NCBI GenBank assembly: GCA_001800975.1
Contig: MGWK01000032.1
Location: 1,966-65,965 of the forward strand
Source: Flavobacteria bacterium RIFCSPLOWO2_12_FULL_35_11
GTDB lineage: Bacteria; Bacteroidota; Bacteroidia; Flavobacteriales; Flavobacteriaceae
Direction: 5' to 3'
Length of the DNA stretch: 64,000 bases
Part shown: positions 54,234 through 60,692 of the stretch, one piece after another
Numbering within the stretch: the first letter of the stretch is position 1
Layout: every line of letters begins with the position of its first letter
Made by a program: the position numbers and the translations under genes
Notes under the pieces: model-generated
What the model was told of the DNA's origin: nothing
Databases searched by the model: none
The model's input: only the letters and a program-made list of their open reading frames with translations

Positions 54234-55481
54234 ATGATAAAGTTTTTATTTGACACAGATACTTGGCAAGAAATATACAGCAGCATTCGTAAAAACAAAA
54301 TACGTACCGGGATTACCATCATTGGTGTAATGTGGGGTATATTTTTATTGGTTGTTTTATTGGGCGCCGCAAAAGGCGTTGAGAATAATTTCAATAGATT
54401 ATTCGGAGATTTTGCAACTAACAGCGTATTTGTTTGGGCACAACAAACAAGCAAACCGTTCAAAGGTTTTCAGGAAGGAAAAGGAATTACCTTAAAAATG
54501 TCTGATTTAGACAATATCAAAAAAGAAATTAAAGGGCTTGAATTTGTCATACCGCGTCATCAAAACCAGGCTTTAGCCGTTAATAAGTTTAAAACAGGGA
54601 CGTTTGGGATTTTTGGAGATTATCCTGAGTTTGATAAAGTTCAGAAGCGAAATTTAGTTTATGGCAGATTTATTAATGACAATGACATCATTGAAAAAAA
54701 GAAAGTTTGTGTCATTGAAGAAGAAATTTATAAGCAACTTTTTGATAAAGGTGAATTTCCAATAGGGCAATATATTAAAATAGACAATATCAATTACAAT
54801 GTAGTTGGAATGTATAAAGAAGGACAAATAGGATCAGGCGGACCGCAAGGAAGTATTCATATTCCATTTACAACATTTCAACAAGTTTACAATAGAGGAG
54901 ACAGTGTGGGCTGGATGATGATTACGGGGCAACCTGGTTTTGACATTACGCAAATAGAAGCAGATGTTAAGTTACTTTTAAAAAATTTACATAAAGTACA
55001 CCCTGAAGACGAAAGGGCATTTGGAAGCTTTAATTTGGGCAAAGAAATAGCAAAAGTGACAGGCTTTTTAACTGGAATGCAGTTTTTAACATGGTTTGTT
55101 GGAATTGCAACTTTAATTGCAGGCGTATTTGCCATTGGAAATATCCTATTAATTACGGTTAAAGAAAGAACTAAAGAAATAGGAATCAGACGCGCTTTGG
55201 GCGCAAAACCTTGGGAGATAAAACGACAAATAATTTTGGAATCTGTTTTTTTAACAAGTATTGCAGGCGCATTGGGAATCATATCCGGAGGGGTTGTTTT
55301 AATGATTATTGATGCCACTTTGGGACAAGGAGAAGAACCAGCCTTAACAAACCCAACTGTTGATATTCCTGTAATTATAATAGCAGCAATAACGCTGGTA
55401 GTTTTAGGAACATTAATCGGGTTAATTCCTGCACATAAAGCAGTAAGCATTCGACCAATAGAAGCATTAAGAGAGGAATAA
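54234..55481 (+). CDS. MacB/FtsX-like ABC permease 2
   Basis: KNKIRT, VKERTKEIGIRRALGA and PIEALREE motifs. Confidence 0.93.
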   Translation: MIKFLFDTDTWQEIYSSIRKNKIRTGITIIGVMWGIFLLVVLLGAAKGVENNFNRLFGDFATNSVFVWAQQTSKPFKGFQEGKGITLKMSDLDNIKKEIKGLEFVIPRHQNQALAVNKFKTGTFGIFGDYPEFDKVQKRNLVYGRFINDNDIIEKKKVCVIEEEIYKQLFDKGEFPIGQYIKIDNINYNVVGMYKEGQIGSGGPQGSIHIPFTTFQQVYNRGDSVGWMMITGQPGFDITQIEADVKLLLKNLHKVHPEDERAFGSFNLGKEIAKVTGFLTGMQFLTWFVGIATLIAGVFAIGNILLITVKERTKEIGIRRALGAKPWEIKRQIILESVFLTSIAGALGIISGGVVLMIIDATLGQGEEPALTNPTVDIPVIIIAAITLVVLGTLIGLIPAHKAVSIRPIEALREE

Positions 55482-55533
55482 TCAATCTTTCAATTTTTAA
55501 TAAAAAATAACATAAACTGAAAATCAATCACTA

Positions 55534-56658
55534 ATGAAAAAAACAATAATTTTTGGATCAATAGCAGTAGCGCTAATAGCTGTTTTGGCTTGGTTTGGAG
55601 CAAAGAACAGCAAATCTCCAATTCAATATGAAACAGAAAAACCATTTAAAACCAATATTGTCAGAAAAACAGTGGCTACAGGAAAAGTAATTCCTTTGGA
55701 AGAAGCAGAAATTAAACCAAAAGTTTCAGGAATTATTGAAGAAATATTTGTTGAAGAAGGCGCAAAGGTTAAAGTTGGCGACTTAATCGCAACTATTAGG
55801 GTGGTGCCAAATGTGCAGTCTTTAAACAGTGCCCAAGGAACCGTGAAAACAGCCCAATTGCGTTATAGCAATACAAAAACATTGTATGACAGAAATAAAG
55901 GTCTTTTTGAAAAAGGGGTTATTTCCAAGCAAGAATTTGAAACGGCTGAATTAAACTACAACAGCGCCAGACAAGATTTAAACAATGCCCAAAACAATTT
56001 GGACATTATTAAAAAAGGTTCGGCAGCGGGTATGGGTAAAACCGCCAATACTTATGTTAAAGCCGAAATCTCAGGAACAATTTTAGAAATACCGGTTCGT
56101 ATTGGTACCCAGGTTATTGAAAGCAACACATTTAATGCGGGAACTACCATTGCAACTATTGCAGATATGACCAAAATGATTTTTGAAGGGAAAGTTGATG
56201 AAGCTGAAGTAGGGAAAATTAAAAACGGAACAGTTTTGGAAGTTTCTTTGGGCGCTATTGAAAAGAAAAAATACCCTGCAAAATTAAACTTTATTGCGCC
56301 AAAAGGAACTGAAGAAAATGGTGCTGTACAGTTTAAAATTAAAGGCGACGTAACTTTGGATGATGAATTTTTTGTTAGAGCGGGCTATAGCGCCAATGCT
56401 GACATTGTATTGGAAAAAAAGGACAGCGTGCTCTCAATTAAAGAAGCATTGTTGCAATTTGATAAAAAAACCGATGCTCCTTTTGTGGAAGTAAAAACTG
56501 GTGATCAGGTTTTTGAAAGAAGAAATGTTGAGTTGGGTATTTCAGATGGCGTAAATGTTGAAATCATTAAAGGCGTTACCCTAAAAGATGAAATTAAAAT
56601 TTGGAATAAAACCTCCAAAAAGGAAGGTGAAGATAAAGATGAAGAAGAAAGCGATTAA
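55534..56658 (+). CDS. Efflux periplasmic adaptor (MacA/HlyD-like)
   Basis: ATGKVIP....IKPKVSGII; AEISGTI; VDEAEVGKI; GYSANADI motifs. Confidence 0.92.
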   Translation: MKKTIIFGSIAVALIAVLAWFGAKNSKSPIQYETEKPFKTNIVRKTVATGKVIPLEEAEIKPKVSGIIEEIFVEEGAKVKVGDLIATIRVVPNVQSLNSAQGTVKTAQLRYSNTKTLYDRNKGLFEKGVISKQEFETAELNYNSARQDLNNAQNNLDIIKKGSAAGMGKTANTYVKAEISGTILEIPVRIGTQVIESNTFNAGTTIATIADMTKMIFEGKVDEAEVGKIKNGTVLEVSLGAIEKKKYPAKLNFIAPKGTEENGAVQFKIKGDVTLDDEFFVRAGYSANADIVLEKKDSVLSIKEALLQFDKKTDAPFVEVKTGDQVFERRNVELGISDGVNVEIIKGVTLKDEIKIWNKTSKKEGEDKDEEESD

Positions 56659-56848: not shown

Positions 56849-57232
56849 ATGGAAAGTCAGTTAGTATTCTTAAGTGATCTGAACTTTAACTTAGATGTTT
56901 GGAAAAGAGAGTTGAAGTTTCAAGAAAGTGAAATGGATTATTTTGAAGAAAAGTTAGAGCATATTGTTATGCGTAGCCCCGGAACTGAGGTTCTGGTTCA
57001 ATTAGAAGGTTTTCAGAATAAGATAATCCGTGAACGCGAAGTTATGGGTCATTTAAGGCATAGAATTCGAATGAAAAGGAGAGAATTGGCACATCAAGGC
57101 CATATTGAAAAAAATAATGAGGCGCAATTTCATGAAAAACAAGTGTTGTTAAAAGATGAAATGAAAACATTTGTAAATATGCATTACCAGCTTAAGGAAA
57201 AGATGATGGATTTCTTCCTGAAATATTTGTAG
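56849..57232 (+). CDS. Hypothetical all-helical protein
   Basis: 127 aa; W..EL.F...E...FE..L...V and L..FQN pattern; His-rich; own terminator. Confidence 0.8.
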   Translation: MESQLVFLSDLNFNLDVWKRELKFQESEMDYFEEKLEHIVMRSPGTEVLVQLEGFQNKIIREREVMGHLRHRIRMKRRELAHQGHIEKNNEAQFHEKQVLLKDEMKTFVNMHYQLKEKMMDFFLKYL

Positions 57233-57253: not shown

Positions 57254-57285
57254 AAAAAAATCGGAGTGAAAACTCCGATTTTTTT
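57254..57285. terminator. Bidirectional terminator
   Basis: AAAAAAATCGGAGT-GAAA-ACTCCGATTTTTTT. Confidence 0.9.
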
Positions 57286-57300
57286 GTTTAAAAGTTATTT

Positions 57301-58545
57301 TTAGGAATGGAATTCAGTAATTGTTTTTTTAATGATCGAAACGCAATCCAATAATTGTTCTTCATTCATCACCAAAGGTGGCGCAAAACGAATAATGTTT
57401 CCGTGAGTTGGTTTTGCCAATAAACCGTTGTCGCGCAGTTTTAAACATATATCCCAGGCAGTTGAACTGTTTTCACTGTCATTAATCACTATAGCGTTTA
57501 ACAAGCCTTTACCGCGCACTAATTTTATTAAAGTTTGGGTATCAATAAATTTTTGCAATTCACTTCTGAAAAGTTTTCCCAATTTGTCTGCATTTTCAGC
57601 CAAAGCTTCATCTTTAATCACTTTTAGTGCGGCAATGGCCACAGCAGCAGCTAATGGATTTCCTCCAAAAGTTGATCCGTGTTGTCCGGGTTTTATCACC
57701 TCCATAATGTGGTTATTTGCCAAAACTGCCGATACCGGATAAACGCCGCCACTCAATGCTTTTCCTAAAATTAAAATATCGGGAATTACATTTTCATGAT
57801 TAACAGCCAATAATTTTCCTGTTCTAGCGATACCTGTTTGCACTTCATCGGCAATAAATAAGACGTCATATTTTTCGCACAACGCTTTTGCTTTCGCCAA
57901 ATAACCTTCCGCAGGCACATAAACGCCAGCTTCTCCCTGAATAGGTTCCACTAAAAATCCGGCAATATTTTTGCTCGATTTTAGCGCTTCTTCCAAGGCA
58001 GATATATTATCATAGTCAATTTTTATAAATCCTTCCGTAAAAGGCCCGAAGTTTTTGCGGGCTTCCTCATCATTTGAAAAAGAAATGATGGTGGTTGTAC
58101 GTCCGTGAAAATTATTTTTACAAACAATTATTTGAGCCTGATTTTCAGGGATTCCTTTTTTCTCATAAGCATATTTTCTGCAAAGTTTAATGGTAGTTTC
58201 CACTGCTTCTGCACCAGTGTTCATTGGCAAAACTTTGTCGAAACCAAAAAAATCGGTTACATATTTTTCATATTTCCCCAATACATCATTGTAAAAGGCC
58301 CTAGAAGTTAAAGTTAAAGTACTTGCCTGATCATTTAATGCTTTTATTATTTTAGGGTGGCAATGTCCCTGATTAACAGCGGAATACGCCGATAAGAAAT
58401 CGTAATAACGTTTACCGTCCACATCCCAAACATACACGCCTTCTCCTCTCGTTAAAACTACAGGTAAAGGGTGGTAATTATGCGCCCCGTAATTATTTTC
58501 TAAATCAATTGCTTGTTGTGATGAAATTTTTTCTGAAACCATCAT
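57301..58545 (-). CDS. rocD: Ornithine--oxo-acid transaminase (likely start ATG 58545)
   Basis: [47 protein letters not shown] and GKALSGG motifs. Confidence 0.96.
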
Positions 58546-58783
58546 GGTAAAAAAATTATAATTTAAAACTCTCAATTCCTCCTTTAGGAGAGAAATCATC
58601 CTCATATTTTTTGCAAATTACAAAATATTTCAAACTTATAATCTGGGTTAATTGTTTATTTTAATTGTGAAAATTTCTTTCAAAAAAAGAATATTGTATT
58701 ATTCTAAATTTTGTCATAAAAATTACATTTCTTTCGAAATTAATTAAATAAATTTGCATCAACTAAAAATAAAAATTTAAGAA

Positions 58784-59200
58784 ATGAAAAAATCAGTATT
58801 GATACTAGGATTGGTAGCATTCTTCTTTGCTAGCTGCGGTGAAACAAAGAAAGAAGAAATAAAAAAAGAAGTGGAAACACCAGTTGAGGCCGCTAAAGAA
58901 GAAATTAAAACAACGGATGATTATCTTGCGTTAGGAAAAGAATTATTTACATCAAAAACGTGTGTTACTTGTCATCAACCAGATGTAAAAGTAATTGGAC
59001 CGTCTATTAAAGACATCAATAAAAAGTATACTGAAACAAACGGAAACATTGTAGCATTCCTAAAAGGAGAAACTCCTGCAATTGTTGATACAGATCCAGG
59101 CCAAGTTGCCATTATGAAAGCCAATTTAGATGGTTTTGTAAAAAACTTAACCAGTGAAGAGCTTGCTGCATTGGCAGTTTACATGAACAGTATAAAATAA
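58784..59200 (+). CDS. Lipoprotein c-type cytochrome (class I, mono-haem)
   Basis: Lipobox FFASC; CVTCH; GPS; distal Met (AIMKAN). Confidence 0.9.
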   Translation: MKKSVLILGLVAFFFASCGETKKEEIKKEVETPVEAAKEEIKTTDDYLALGKELFTSKTCVTCHQPDVKVIGPSIKDINKKYTETNGNIVAFLKGETPAIVDTDPGQVAIMKANLDGFVKNLTSEELAALAVYMNSIK

Positions 59201-59221
59201 TCAGGTTAAAATTATTAATTG

Positions 59222-59252
59222 AAAGCATCCCAAAATTCGGGATGCTTTTTTT
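59222..59252 (+). terminator. Intrinsic terminator
   Basis: AAAGCATCCC-AAAATTC-GGGATGCTTTTTTT. Confidence 0.85.
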
Positions 59253-59276
59253 ATGCAAAAATGGTACATTTGCAAC

Positions 59277-60692
59277 ATGGCAAGAAAAAACAAGCAATTT
59301 ATTTTTGAGAATATTGAAGTGATTGATGCGGGAGCGCAAGGCAAAACAATTGCCAAGGCGCCGGACGGATGCGTGATATTTTTATCCAACGCAGTTCCGG
59401 GAGATATTGTTGACATTAAAACCGGGAAAAAAAGAAAAGCCTATTTTGAAGGCACAGCCATAAAGTTTCATAAATATTCAGAAAAGCGCACCCAACCTGT
59501 TTGTCAGCATTTTGAATTTTGCGGCGGCTGTAAATGGCAGGATATGGCTTACGAACACCAATTGGCCTATAAAGAAAAGGAAGTTATCAATAACTTGAAA
59601 CGCATTGGGCATTTAGAATTGCCAGAACCGACACCTATTTTAGGCTGTGAAAAAATTTATTTTTACAGAAATAAAATGGAGTTTTCATTTTCCAATAGCC
59701 GTTGGCTCACTTTGGAAGAAATAAATTCCACTGAAGAAATAGACAACAGAAATGCTTGTGGTTTCCATATTTCTGGAATGTGGGATAAAATTTTGGATAT
59801 TGAAAAATGCCATCTGCAGGAAGATCCTTCCAACCAAATCAGGAATTTCGTCAAAGAATTCGGCATACAAAACGGACTCGAATTTTACAATCCGCGAGAA
59901 CAATCGGGTCTTTTGCGAACCATAATGATTCGAATTTCATCAACAGGTGAAATGATGGTGGTTATTCAATTTTTAAAAGATCATAAAGAAAAAAGGGAAG
60001 CTTTATTGAATGCCTTAATTCAGGAATTTCCAAAAATAACCTCGCTTCAATATGTCATAAATCCAAAAGGAAACGACACTTTATACGATCAAAATATTAT
60101 TTTATTTAGCGGAAGAGATCATATTTTTGAAGAAATGGAAGGCCTTAAATTTAAAATTGGGGCAAAATCATTTTATCAGACGAATTCGGCTCAGGCTTAT
60201 GAATTGTACAAAATTACGCGTGACTTTGCCAATTTAACCGGAAATGAAATTGTATTCGATTTTTATACCGGCACTGGAACCATCGCTCAATTTGTAGCCA
60301 AAAACGCCAAAAAAGTGATTGGTGTGGAATCGGTTCCGGAAGCGATTGAAGATGCAAAACAAAACGCAAAATTGAACAACATTAATAATGTCGAATTTTT
60401 TGCTGGGGATATGAAAGATGTTTTTAATGACAATTTCATTAAAACGCACGGACAGCCAGATGTGATAATTACCGATCCGCCGCGTGACGGGATGCATAAA
60501 AATGTGGTGGAAAAACTCTTGGAAATTTCGCCAAAACGCATTGTTTACGTAAGTTGCAATTCGGCAACGCAAGCCCGCGACTTGTCGTTAATGAAAGAAC
60601 AGTACGATATTATTAAAACCCAGGCAGTAGATATGTTTCCACAAACCCATCACGTGGAAAATGTTGTACTTTTGGAATTAAAATCAAAGTAA
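59277..60692 (+). CDS. rlmD: 23S rRNA m5U1939 methyltransferase (start ATG 59277)
   Basis: TRAM domain, C..F..CGGC.WQ, YRNKMEF, FYQTN, DPPRDG, YVSCNSAT and DMFPQTHHVE motifs. Confidence 0.95.
   Translation: MARKNKQFIFENIEVIDAGAQGKTIAKAPDGCVIFLSNAVPGDIVDIKTGKKRKAYFEGTAIKFHKYSEKRTQPVCQHFEFCGGCKWQDMAYEHQLAYKEKEVINNLKRIGHLELPEPTPILGCEKIYFYRNKMEFSFSNSRWLTLEEINSTEEIDNRNACGFHISGMWDKILDIEKCHLQEDPSNQIRNFVKEFGIQNGLEFYNPREQSGLLRTIMIRISSTGEMMVVIQFLKDHKEKREALLNALIQEFPKITSLQYVINPKGNDTLYDQNIILFSGRDHIFEEMEGLKFKIGAKSFYQTNSAQAYELYKITRDFANLTGNEIVFDFYTGTGTIAQFVAKNAKKVIGVESVPEAIEDAKQNAKLNNINNVEFFAGDMKDVFNDNFIKTHGQPDVIITDPPRDGMHKNVVEKLLEISPKRIVYVSCNSATQARDLSLMKEQYDIIKTQAVDMFPQTHHVENVVLLELKSK

Follow-up and report, generated by a model that had tools for sequence, protein, structure and literature searches.

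The window analysed here is a stretch of 64,000 nucleotides from Flavobacteria bacterium RIFCSPLOWO2_12_FULL_35_11 (contig MGWK01000032.1), whose minus strand carries rocD and, just upstream of its start codon, a short leader element made of two conserved boxes. The product of rocD, of 414 amino acids, is a true ornithine--oxo-acid transaminase: it scores 678 bits against TIGR01885, for which the cut-off is 378, and the source annotations concur. As judged by comparison of orthologous loci, the leader element is real, very strongly conserved and specific to rocD, and it very probably constitutes a regulatory element of the rocD mRNA not described before. Its parts in the window are the following, all on the minus strand:

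58621-58614, promoter-like text GTAATTTG, as read in the sequence
58614-58620, TAATTTG promoter box, similar to the '-7 box' of Bacteroidota sigma-A promoters
58605-58600, AUGAGG, as read in the sequence
58567-58605, match of the covariance model R1 (48.5 bits, E = 3.8e-7), the only significant match in the 64-kb window
58587-58601, 5' box, G1-C15, GGAUGAUUUCUCUCC, near-invariant in the loci fetched by homology and present in a sole copy in the window
58597-58599, AUG within the 5' box, first codon of an upstream open reading frame (ORF) that begins MISL
58596-58590, A6-C12, part of the 5' box and proposed 5' strand of the helix P1 (S2 of a putative pseudoknot)
G1G2A3 with U13C14C15, proposed pseudoknot stem S1, with both strands inside the 5' box
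58581-58586, linker or loop N16-N21, UAAAGG, with the conserved AAG at 58584-58582; in other genera it is the point of insertion of P2 hairpins (up to 74 nucleotides)
58575-58580, 3' box AGGAAU, proposed 3' strand of P1, purine-rich and Shine-Dalgarno-like, 29 nucleotides from the start codon
directly after AGGAAU, UGAGAGUUUU, as read in the sequence
58546-58574, AU-rich spacer of 29 nucleotides between the element and the rocD start codon
58549-58555, U7 tract within the spacer
58545, ATG, start codon of rocD
57301-58545, rocD, ornithine--oxo-acid transaminase (414 amino acids), the sole gene associated with the element

Read without interruption, the minus strand from 58621 to 58543 is GTAATTTG-caaaaaatatga-GGAUGAUUUCUCUCC-UAAAGG-AGGAAU-UGAGAGUUUUAAAUUAUAAUUUUUUUACC-AUG, and all the parts that a preliminary description of this DNA had listed (the promoter-like box, the motif, UAAA, U7 and the AUG at 58605) are physically present. 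The published consensus of Bacteroidota promoters is TAnnTTTG, from which transcription would start a few nucleotides past the TAATTTG box, near 58610-58607. Taken by itself, the sequence of the window proves nothing. Its leader, folded as a single sequence, is no better than dinucleotide shuffles (z = +0.10 and +0.23), and the exact 14-mer of the motif, which occurs once in the window, is matched with two mismatches or fewer in 34 of 100 shuffles; the case is carried by comparison.

For this comparison, 80 rocD loci were fetched by protein homology, with one genome per species and 77-97% protein identity, and model R1 was built from 63 non-redundant leaders. The counts on the anatomy of the element refer to 154 non-identical leaders, 60 of which come from the homology-fetched set; the metagenome contigs were chosen by exact pattern, so that invariance inside that set exists by construction. 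Model R1 gave a single match per locus in 65 of the 80 homology-fetched loci, directly upstream of rocD and on the same strand, with scores of 31.7-56.9 bits; this confirmed the impression, voiced in the preliminary description, that text similar to 'GATGATTTCTCTCC...GAGGAAT' stands before rocD in other Flavobacteriaceae. The genera bearing the motif include Lutibacter, Gelidibacter, Urechidicola, Flavivirga, Winogradskyella, Dokdonia and many Flavobacterium (F. psychrophilum among them), together with Aequorivita, Salinimicrobium, Mangrovimonas, Mariniflexile, Ichthyenterobacterium and Xanthomarina; the model found no match in the other 15 of the 80 loci, namely metagenome-assembled genomes labelled Vicingaceae, F. 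cauense, F. limnosediminis, F. humi and some others. The exact-pattern scan of metagenomes returned at least 120 matches, and rocD begins 26-80 nucleotides downstream in 105 of the 120 listed; the remaining ones listed are about a dozen chance matches in GC-richer coding DNA devoid of the promoter box, and three that are cut by contig ends. Model R1 detected no second copy of the motif in the approximately 800 kb of those metagenome contigs, nor in the 64-kb window. Across the 80 loci, the metagenome matches listed, these contigs and the window, the element stands before rocD exclusively and before no other gene, which amounts to an association with one metabolic pathway. The comparison supports well its assignment as a cis-regulatory element of the rocD leader, and the motif is, in the sequences compared, limited to Flavobacteriaceae and close relatives; the view of the preliminary description, that of a gene-specific and strongly conserved leader element placed downstream of a conserved promoter box, is upheld.

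Regarding its layout, the orthologous leaders share a promoter box of the TAATTTG type, 10-20 nucleotides, GGAUGAUUUCUCUCC, a linker of 5-74 nucleotides, AAG-N-AGGAAU, about 30 AU-rich nucleotides, and the rocD AUG. The GTAATTTGC-like promoter box is found in nearly all of them, and the 10-20 nucleotides that separate it from the motif are variable. The 5' box corresponds to G1G2A3U4G5A6U7U8U9C10U11C12U13C14C15, and the only changes in the homology-fetched set are A3>G (two loci), C12>U (four loci) and those at G1; it is followed by one variable base, N16. The linker is of 5-8 nucleotides in 111 of the 154 leaders and of up to 74 in the rest, with A-A-G-N at its 3' end; the 3' box, AGGAAU, is invariant save for one AGGAAA, and U-G is favoured directly after it. 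The spacer to the rocD AUG measures 27-36 nucleotides in 138 of the 154 leaders (mode 30-31); it is AU-rich and has an A at -3, as is typical of Bacteroidia start sites. Spacers longer than 36 nucleotides hold extra self-contained hairpins: in the subfamily of L070, L077 and L079 they reach 105-109 nucleotides, with two extra hairpins and about 40 further nucleotides before the AUG, so that the rule of a spacing of about 30 nucleotides is not absolute. The spacers of several Flavobacterium-like leaders (L154, L148, L135 and L186) contain the same small hairpin, CCCATAACGAGTTTGGG, possibly a repeated or mobile element of small size.

The conserved candidate fold is the helix P1, in which AUUUCUC would pair with G(N)AGGAAU. 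The invariant boxes GGAUGAUUUCUCUCC and AAG-N-AGGAAU would be joined by this weak helix, with A6-C12 facing G20/21-U27 through one U.G pair and a one-nucleotide bulge, and P1 would close the conserved CC...AA loop, where the hairpin P2 is inserted in some genera. The pairs of P1 between A6-U11 and A22-U27 can form in 99.7% of cells, and none of them varies. Nucleotide 12 provides the strongest comparative evidence on the fold. The G of the AAG, G20, is kept in 126 of the 129 leaders where N21 cannot pair with this nucleotide, against only 13 of the 25 that allow C12:G21 or U12:A21 (Fisher p = 8e-9, with no correction for phylogeny); replacement of G20 by U, C or A took place in about 4-5 separate lineages, including the four C12>U leaders. 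It follows from this pattern that nucleotide 12 always has a partner on the 3' strand, which either adjoins P1 or lies across the one-nucleotide bulge, and such semi-compensatory behaviour supports the predicted helix.

In the window, N21 is a G, and the core reaches its minimum energy, -7.8 kcal/mol, in an extended P1 (G5-U13 with G20-U28). The preliminary description had drawn instead a CUCC/GGAG hairpin that hid a textbook Shine-Dalgarno (SD) sequence; this hairpin, worth -4.7 kcal/mol in the window against the value just given for P1 in its conserved register, was rejected together with the sequestration of the SD sequence. GGAG is lineage-specific: G20 followed by N21 = G occurs in 13 of the 154 leaders, all of them from one Lutibacter subclade, and the conserved part is only AGGAAU. 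The alternative pairing CUCUC/GAGAG of the same description does not hold either, GAGAG being confined to the window and its near-identical relatives.

Pairing of G1G2A3 with U13C14C15 (S1) would add to P1 a compact H-type pseudoknot of about 27 nucleotides. S1 is pairable in 98.4% of cells and invariant, and the two A3>G variants retain a G.U pair. The geometry is compatible with a pseudoknot (S1 of 3 bp; L1 of 2 nucleotides, U4G5; S2 of 7 bp; L3 of at least 3 A-rich nucleotides, N16-A19), and all linker insertions fall in its putative loop 3; this H-type arrangement, putative as it is, may be deemed geometrically reasonable.

Regarding P2, the long linkers of L153, L093, L166, L059 and L055, which are independent of one another, form hairpins that outdo those of shuffles (z of -2.1 to -2.7). 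For 14 leaders of the subfamily with linkers of 40-42 nucleotides, RNAalifold returned P1 (AUUUCU:AGGAAU) along with two inner helices, P2a and P2b, and two pairs of P2b, the innermost one, change on both sides (G-C<>A-U and A-U<>G-C). As for covariation among rocD leaders, for which the preliminary description had suggested a check, the element is conserved across genera and P1 and S1 are invariant; the two compensated pairs are in the optional P2b only. In L057, L038, L045, L061 and L077, the long linker has a second AGGAAU/AGGAAA-like copy, GAAGGAAUAAAGG, beside the 3' arm of P2b, and this copy is an alternative partner offered to the 5' box.

With reservations, it is concluded that the element would act as RNA, and not as a DNA operator or through a leader peptide, because the spacing between the boxes ranges over 5-74 nucleotides, long linkers are often hairpins, with two compensated pairs, and the 3' box is read in any of the three frames. 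The reading preferred here is that of an RNA switch, namely a signal-stabilised element of the 5' untranslated region (UTR) that would control rocD translation or mRNA stability; our confidence in it is middling. The element would then found a new family of cis-regulatory mRNA leaders, either as a riboswitch candidate or as a protein-binding site, and the proposal of the preliminary description, a switch or protein-binding element, remains the best reading. On its own the fold would be marginally stable, and a signal from the rocD pathway would lock it; this signal could be a small molecule bound directly, as in a riboswitch, or a dedicated RNA-binding protein. The effector is drawn from the function of the gene, and this applies to ornithine, arginine and proline, named in the preliminary description; we infer the direction of control and a part of the fold as well. 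The element lies 3-13 nucleotides from the inferred 5' end and at a nearly fixed distance of about 30 nucleotides from the AUG, and only compact hairpins are tolerated as insertions; this geometry speaks for an action on the loading of 30S subunits onto the unstructured AU-rich spacer, or on a decay that depends on the 5' end.

Several results weigh against the RNA switch. P1 and S1 are without covariation, and their pairable counts equal those of shuffles. The commonest form of P1 is worth only -2.3 to -2.9 kcal/mol, and its probability in the thermodynamic ensemble is only about 0.15; slightly less structure than in dinucleotide shuffles is predicted for cores, spacers and entire leaders alike (z of +0.3 to +0.4), and some linkers of 29-33 nucleotides are unstructured. 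The element is either a marginal fold that needs a locking partner or a largely single-stranded recognition sequence. An expression platform was looked for and not demonstrated. The 3' box is more complementary to the start region than shuffles are, by 0.6 kcal/mol, but no more so than to other coding windows, and this pairing does not track the variable flanking bases. A last point concerns the transcript ends, which are dealt with below.

Two pairings were considered as platforms and rejected. A sequestor helix of AGGAAU and the next three nucleotides with codons 2-4 of rocD is possible in many lineages, with one position seeming to co-vary; it failed both the mismatched-probe control (p = 0.48 after de-duplication) and the control with other coding windows. 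Pairing of the 5' box with the spacer or the coding region had no excess complementarity. In F. psychrophilum (L080), where codon 3 is GUA and not GUU, a second UCAGUUC occurs at codons 7-9 (L080:1521-1527); it is perfectly complementary to GAAUUGA of the 3' box and is used in the minimum-energy fold, and pairing of this type failed the controls.

The RNA switch can be narrowed to a new riboswitch class, whose aptamer would be the H-type pseudoknot of about 27 nucleotides at the 5' end of the rocD mRNA, with ornithine, arginine, proline or a close intermediate as the ligand; this narrower version is tentative and rather doubtful. We know of no natural riboswitch for ornithine, arginine, proline or close intermediates of their pathway. 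In working principle, the closest systems are the small pseudoknot translational riboswitches preQ1-I, SAM-II and guanidine-III, and the rocD element belongs to none of them. Like these, it has a core of about 27-35 nucleotides that is almost wholly conserved, precedes just one metabolic gene, within its 5' UTR, and combines strands of pyrimidines and of purines with an A-rich loop, from which an H-type pseudoknot could arise; the predicted nearest-neighbour stability is poor, and one loop accepts a variable insertion. Unlike them, it has no sequence or model match to any of the three, and covariation does not support its putative pseudoknot; moreover, their 3' strand overlaps the ribosome-binding site, whereas the rocD element ends about 30 nucleotides before the AUG in a host that does not use SD sequences.

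As for the transcripts, the data consist of assembled RNA contigs and not of raw reads. Two unrelated RNA runs of F. psychrophilum (L080) have rocD contigs that start at exactly 1461, the second A of AAG, with depths of 255 and 3; a metatranscriptome contig identical to L080 starts at 1449, inside the 5' box; and for the window, the contigs of two runs whose type is not recorded stop at 58590 (C12) and leave the DNA upstream uncovered. Transcription of the 3' box is certain, and in two organisms it takes in at least part of the 5' box. The coincident end at 1461 has three possible origins, namely a downstream start, processing in the loop or an artefact of assembly; it counts against the RNA model and is the main threat to it. 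The element could also be read as a determinant of processing or stability, in which an endonucleolytic cut, conceivably a self-cleavage, at the A^AG loop, or protection of the 5' end, sets the half-life of the rocD mRNA; this is unlikely, and it could coexist with the RNA switch. The exact agreement of the two F. psychrophilum runs speaks for it, as do the third run that reaches 1449, the window contigs ending at C12, and the position of the element within a few nucleotides of the predicted 5' end. However, assembled contigs routinely lose the ends of transcripts, the ends differ among the data sets (1449, 1461 and C12), and nothing in the element resembles a self-cleaving ribozyme known in Rfam.

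A reading at the DNA level, with the boxes as binding sites for one or two transcription factors just downstream of the rocD promoter, or overlapping it, and a logic like that of RocR/AhrC in Bacillus, is quite unlikely. It would account for the presence of the boxes within about 5-40 bp of the promoter box, for the imperfect inverted repeat ATTTCT/AGGAAT, for a sequence that is invariant and without covariation, and for the two F. psychrophilum RNA contigs that begin past the 5' box. Nevertheless, a dyad operator has half-sites at a fixed spacing, and here the spacing extends over 5-74 bp and varies by single base pairs among the short forms (5, 6, 7 and 8), which a protein that recognises both boxes in duplex DNA would not tolerate; the inserted DNA is itself hairpin-forming, with compensated pairs. 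The repeat between the boxes is imperfect in all 154 leaders, and the mismatch is always a T opposite a G, which makes a U.G pair on the sense RNA strand; RNA tolerates it, and a DNA dyad does not. Other RNA contigs contain part of the 5' box, a conserved regulator gene beside rocD was looked for across the orthologous loci and none was found, and a transcription factor seldom has a regulon of just one gene, which is more typical of a cis-acting RNA.

The rocD gene of Bacillus subtilis is controlled at the DNA level, by an enhancer-binding protein at a -24/-12 promoter. The RocR/sigma-54/AhrC system regulates the same enzyme, presumably according to the availability of arginine or ornithine; it differs from the leader described here, which has a promoter box of the sigma-A TAnnTTTG type, lacks a GG-N10-GC element, and has a pattern of constraint that points to RNA.

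Control through the upstream ORF, in which ribosomes at the AUG of the 5' box (MISL...) would occupy or unfold the leader or sense an amino acid, is decidedly improbable. In its favour, this AUG is present in 152 of the 154 leaders and replaced in the other two by GUG, which can likewise serve as a start codon; the four initial codons are the same throughout, and gene callers at times start rocD upstream of the motif. Against it, codons 2-4 have not one synonymous change across genera, the peptide varies from 5 to more than 30 residues, and the ORF stops anywhere or runs out of frame into rocD; it reads the 3' box in any of the three frames and shares the frame of rocD in 12 leaders only. The lack of synonymous changes, along with the variable frame, length and stop, indicates that the constraint acts on the nucleotides and not on the peptide. 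No runs of Arg, Pro or other regulatory codons were found in this ORF among the 154 leaders, no intrinsic terminator was found in the rocD leader, and there is no terminator/antiterminator pair; a leader-peptide attenuator has a set ORF length and frame, regulatory codon runs and a terminator in the leader, and the rocD leader differs in each respect. The U7 tract, which the preliminary description had noted, was rejected as a terminator tract: it is not conserved and has no adjacent hairpin. SpeFL, the ornithine-sensing leader peptide of Gammaproteobacteria, is similar in that a short ORF precedes a gene of ornithine metabolism within its leader; it needs a conserved peptide and coupling to Rho or a terminator, whereas in the rocD leader the peptide is not conserved past MISL and conservation is at the level of nucleotides.

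In the window, the ATGs at 58605 and 58599 are both in frame with rocD, and public gene calls for this rocD are of either 414 or 434 amino acids, the longer model beginning at ATG 58605 and translating the motif. The AUG at 58605, to which the preliminary description had drawn attention, is restricted to one Lutibacter subclade, and a role for it is not supported; the conserved AUG is that at 58599-58597, in the 5' box. An N-terminal extension of rocD from either ATG was rejected, and the 434-residue models are probably mis-started, since the extension is in frame in just the 12 leaders mentioned; in Lutibacter, these models swallow a non-coding element.

Finally, a mimic of the SD/anti-SD interaction that would be linked to the unusual ribosome of Bacteroidia, and in which the purine box AAGNAGGA would be a distant SD-like site for ribosomes with a free 16S tail (e.g., lacking bS21), masked by the pyrimidine box, is very improbable: AAGAAGGA or AAAGGAGG can pair with 6-8 nucleotides of the 16S 3' tail, ...CCUCCUUUCU (taken from an oligonucleotide given in PMC13000453), and the 5' box is also complementary to the purine box, but AGGAAU ends 27-36 nucleotides before the AUG, far beyond the spacing of an SD site (GGAGG-like, 5-10 nucleotides before the start), GGAGG occurs in one Lutibacter subclade, the invariant GGAUG and the CC...AA loop are left unexplained, and the F. 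johnsoniae studies on bS21 and the anti-SD sequence name rpsU as the one gene with a strong SD, with no mention of rocD, so that a link to that work was discarded. The fourU and ROSE thermometers are alike in that a U-rich strand pairs weakly with a strand containing AGGA, with a U.G pair included; they mask the actual ribosome-binding site and are not invariant motifs specific to a gene family, whereas the AGGA box of rocD is about 30 nucleotides from the AUG.

With regard to known RNA families, Rfam 15 gave no match at E <= 10 in the window between 57000 and 60000, and none at E <= 1 in the leaders of 14 orthologous loci, which agrees with the statement of the preliminary description that no named class was recognised. 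In the literature searched, no paper was found that links rocD to an RNA motif or riboswitch candidate, and none that prints the 14-mer. A transcriptome study of F. psychrophilum lists 64 structured 5' regions in its Table S7, and rocD is not among them (PMC9723704). Like the orphan Bacteroidota RNA motifs (the Weinberg/Breaker entries of Rfam and the 5' regions of PMC9723704), the rocD element is recognised only by its conservation before one gene family in one lineage; unlike them, it is outside both Rfam 15 and the PMC9723704 list, and it combines an unusually invariant sequence with a weak predicted structure. In F. psychrophilum, rocD is counted among the highly expressed genes.

If functional, the element would represent an unrecorded family of cis-regulatory RNA that governs how carbon and nitrogen from ornithine and arginine enter the metabolism of glutamate and proline. 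The host group is large and ecologically important, and comprises Flavobacteriaceae of the sea and of fresh waters as well as the fish pathogen F. psychrophilum. The leader offers a compact, gene-specific test case for post-transcriptional switches that act on translation in Bacteroidia, whose ribosomes ignore SD sequences, and it addresses a second question, i.e. whether a metabolite of an amino-acid pathway of this kind has a natural RNA sensor. The riboswitch version, if true, would set the translation or the decay of the rocD mRNA and reveal how initiation is gated when there is no SD sequence to hide.

As for the neighbourhood, the divergent gene upstream of rocD codes for a cytochrome-c-like lipoprotein (58784-59200) and is followed by RlmD, the pair spanning 58784-60692; downstream, 54234-56658 codes for a MacB-like permease and a membrane-fusion (RND/MacA-type) protein. 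None of the neighbours of rocD in the window is tied to arginine or ornithine metabolism, and the upstream ones vary among genera. One further feature lies past the end of the gene:

57254-57285, minus strand, intrinsic terminator-like hairpin, with a 14-bp stem followed by a T-run, which ends the monocistronic rocD transcript

This hairpin is flanked by an A-run and a T-run and lies between rocD and a convergent ORF (56849-57232), with the appearance of a bidirectional terminator; weak, sub-threshold matches to small RNAs at 57254-57285 are due to its strong 14-bp stem. At gathering score, Rfam matches the 64-kb window at a single place, a tRNA-Met (CAT) gene at 507-581 on the minus strand.

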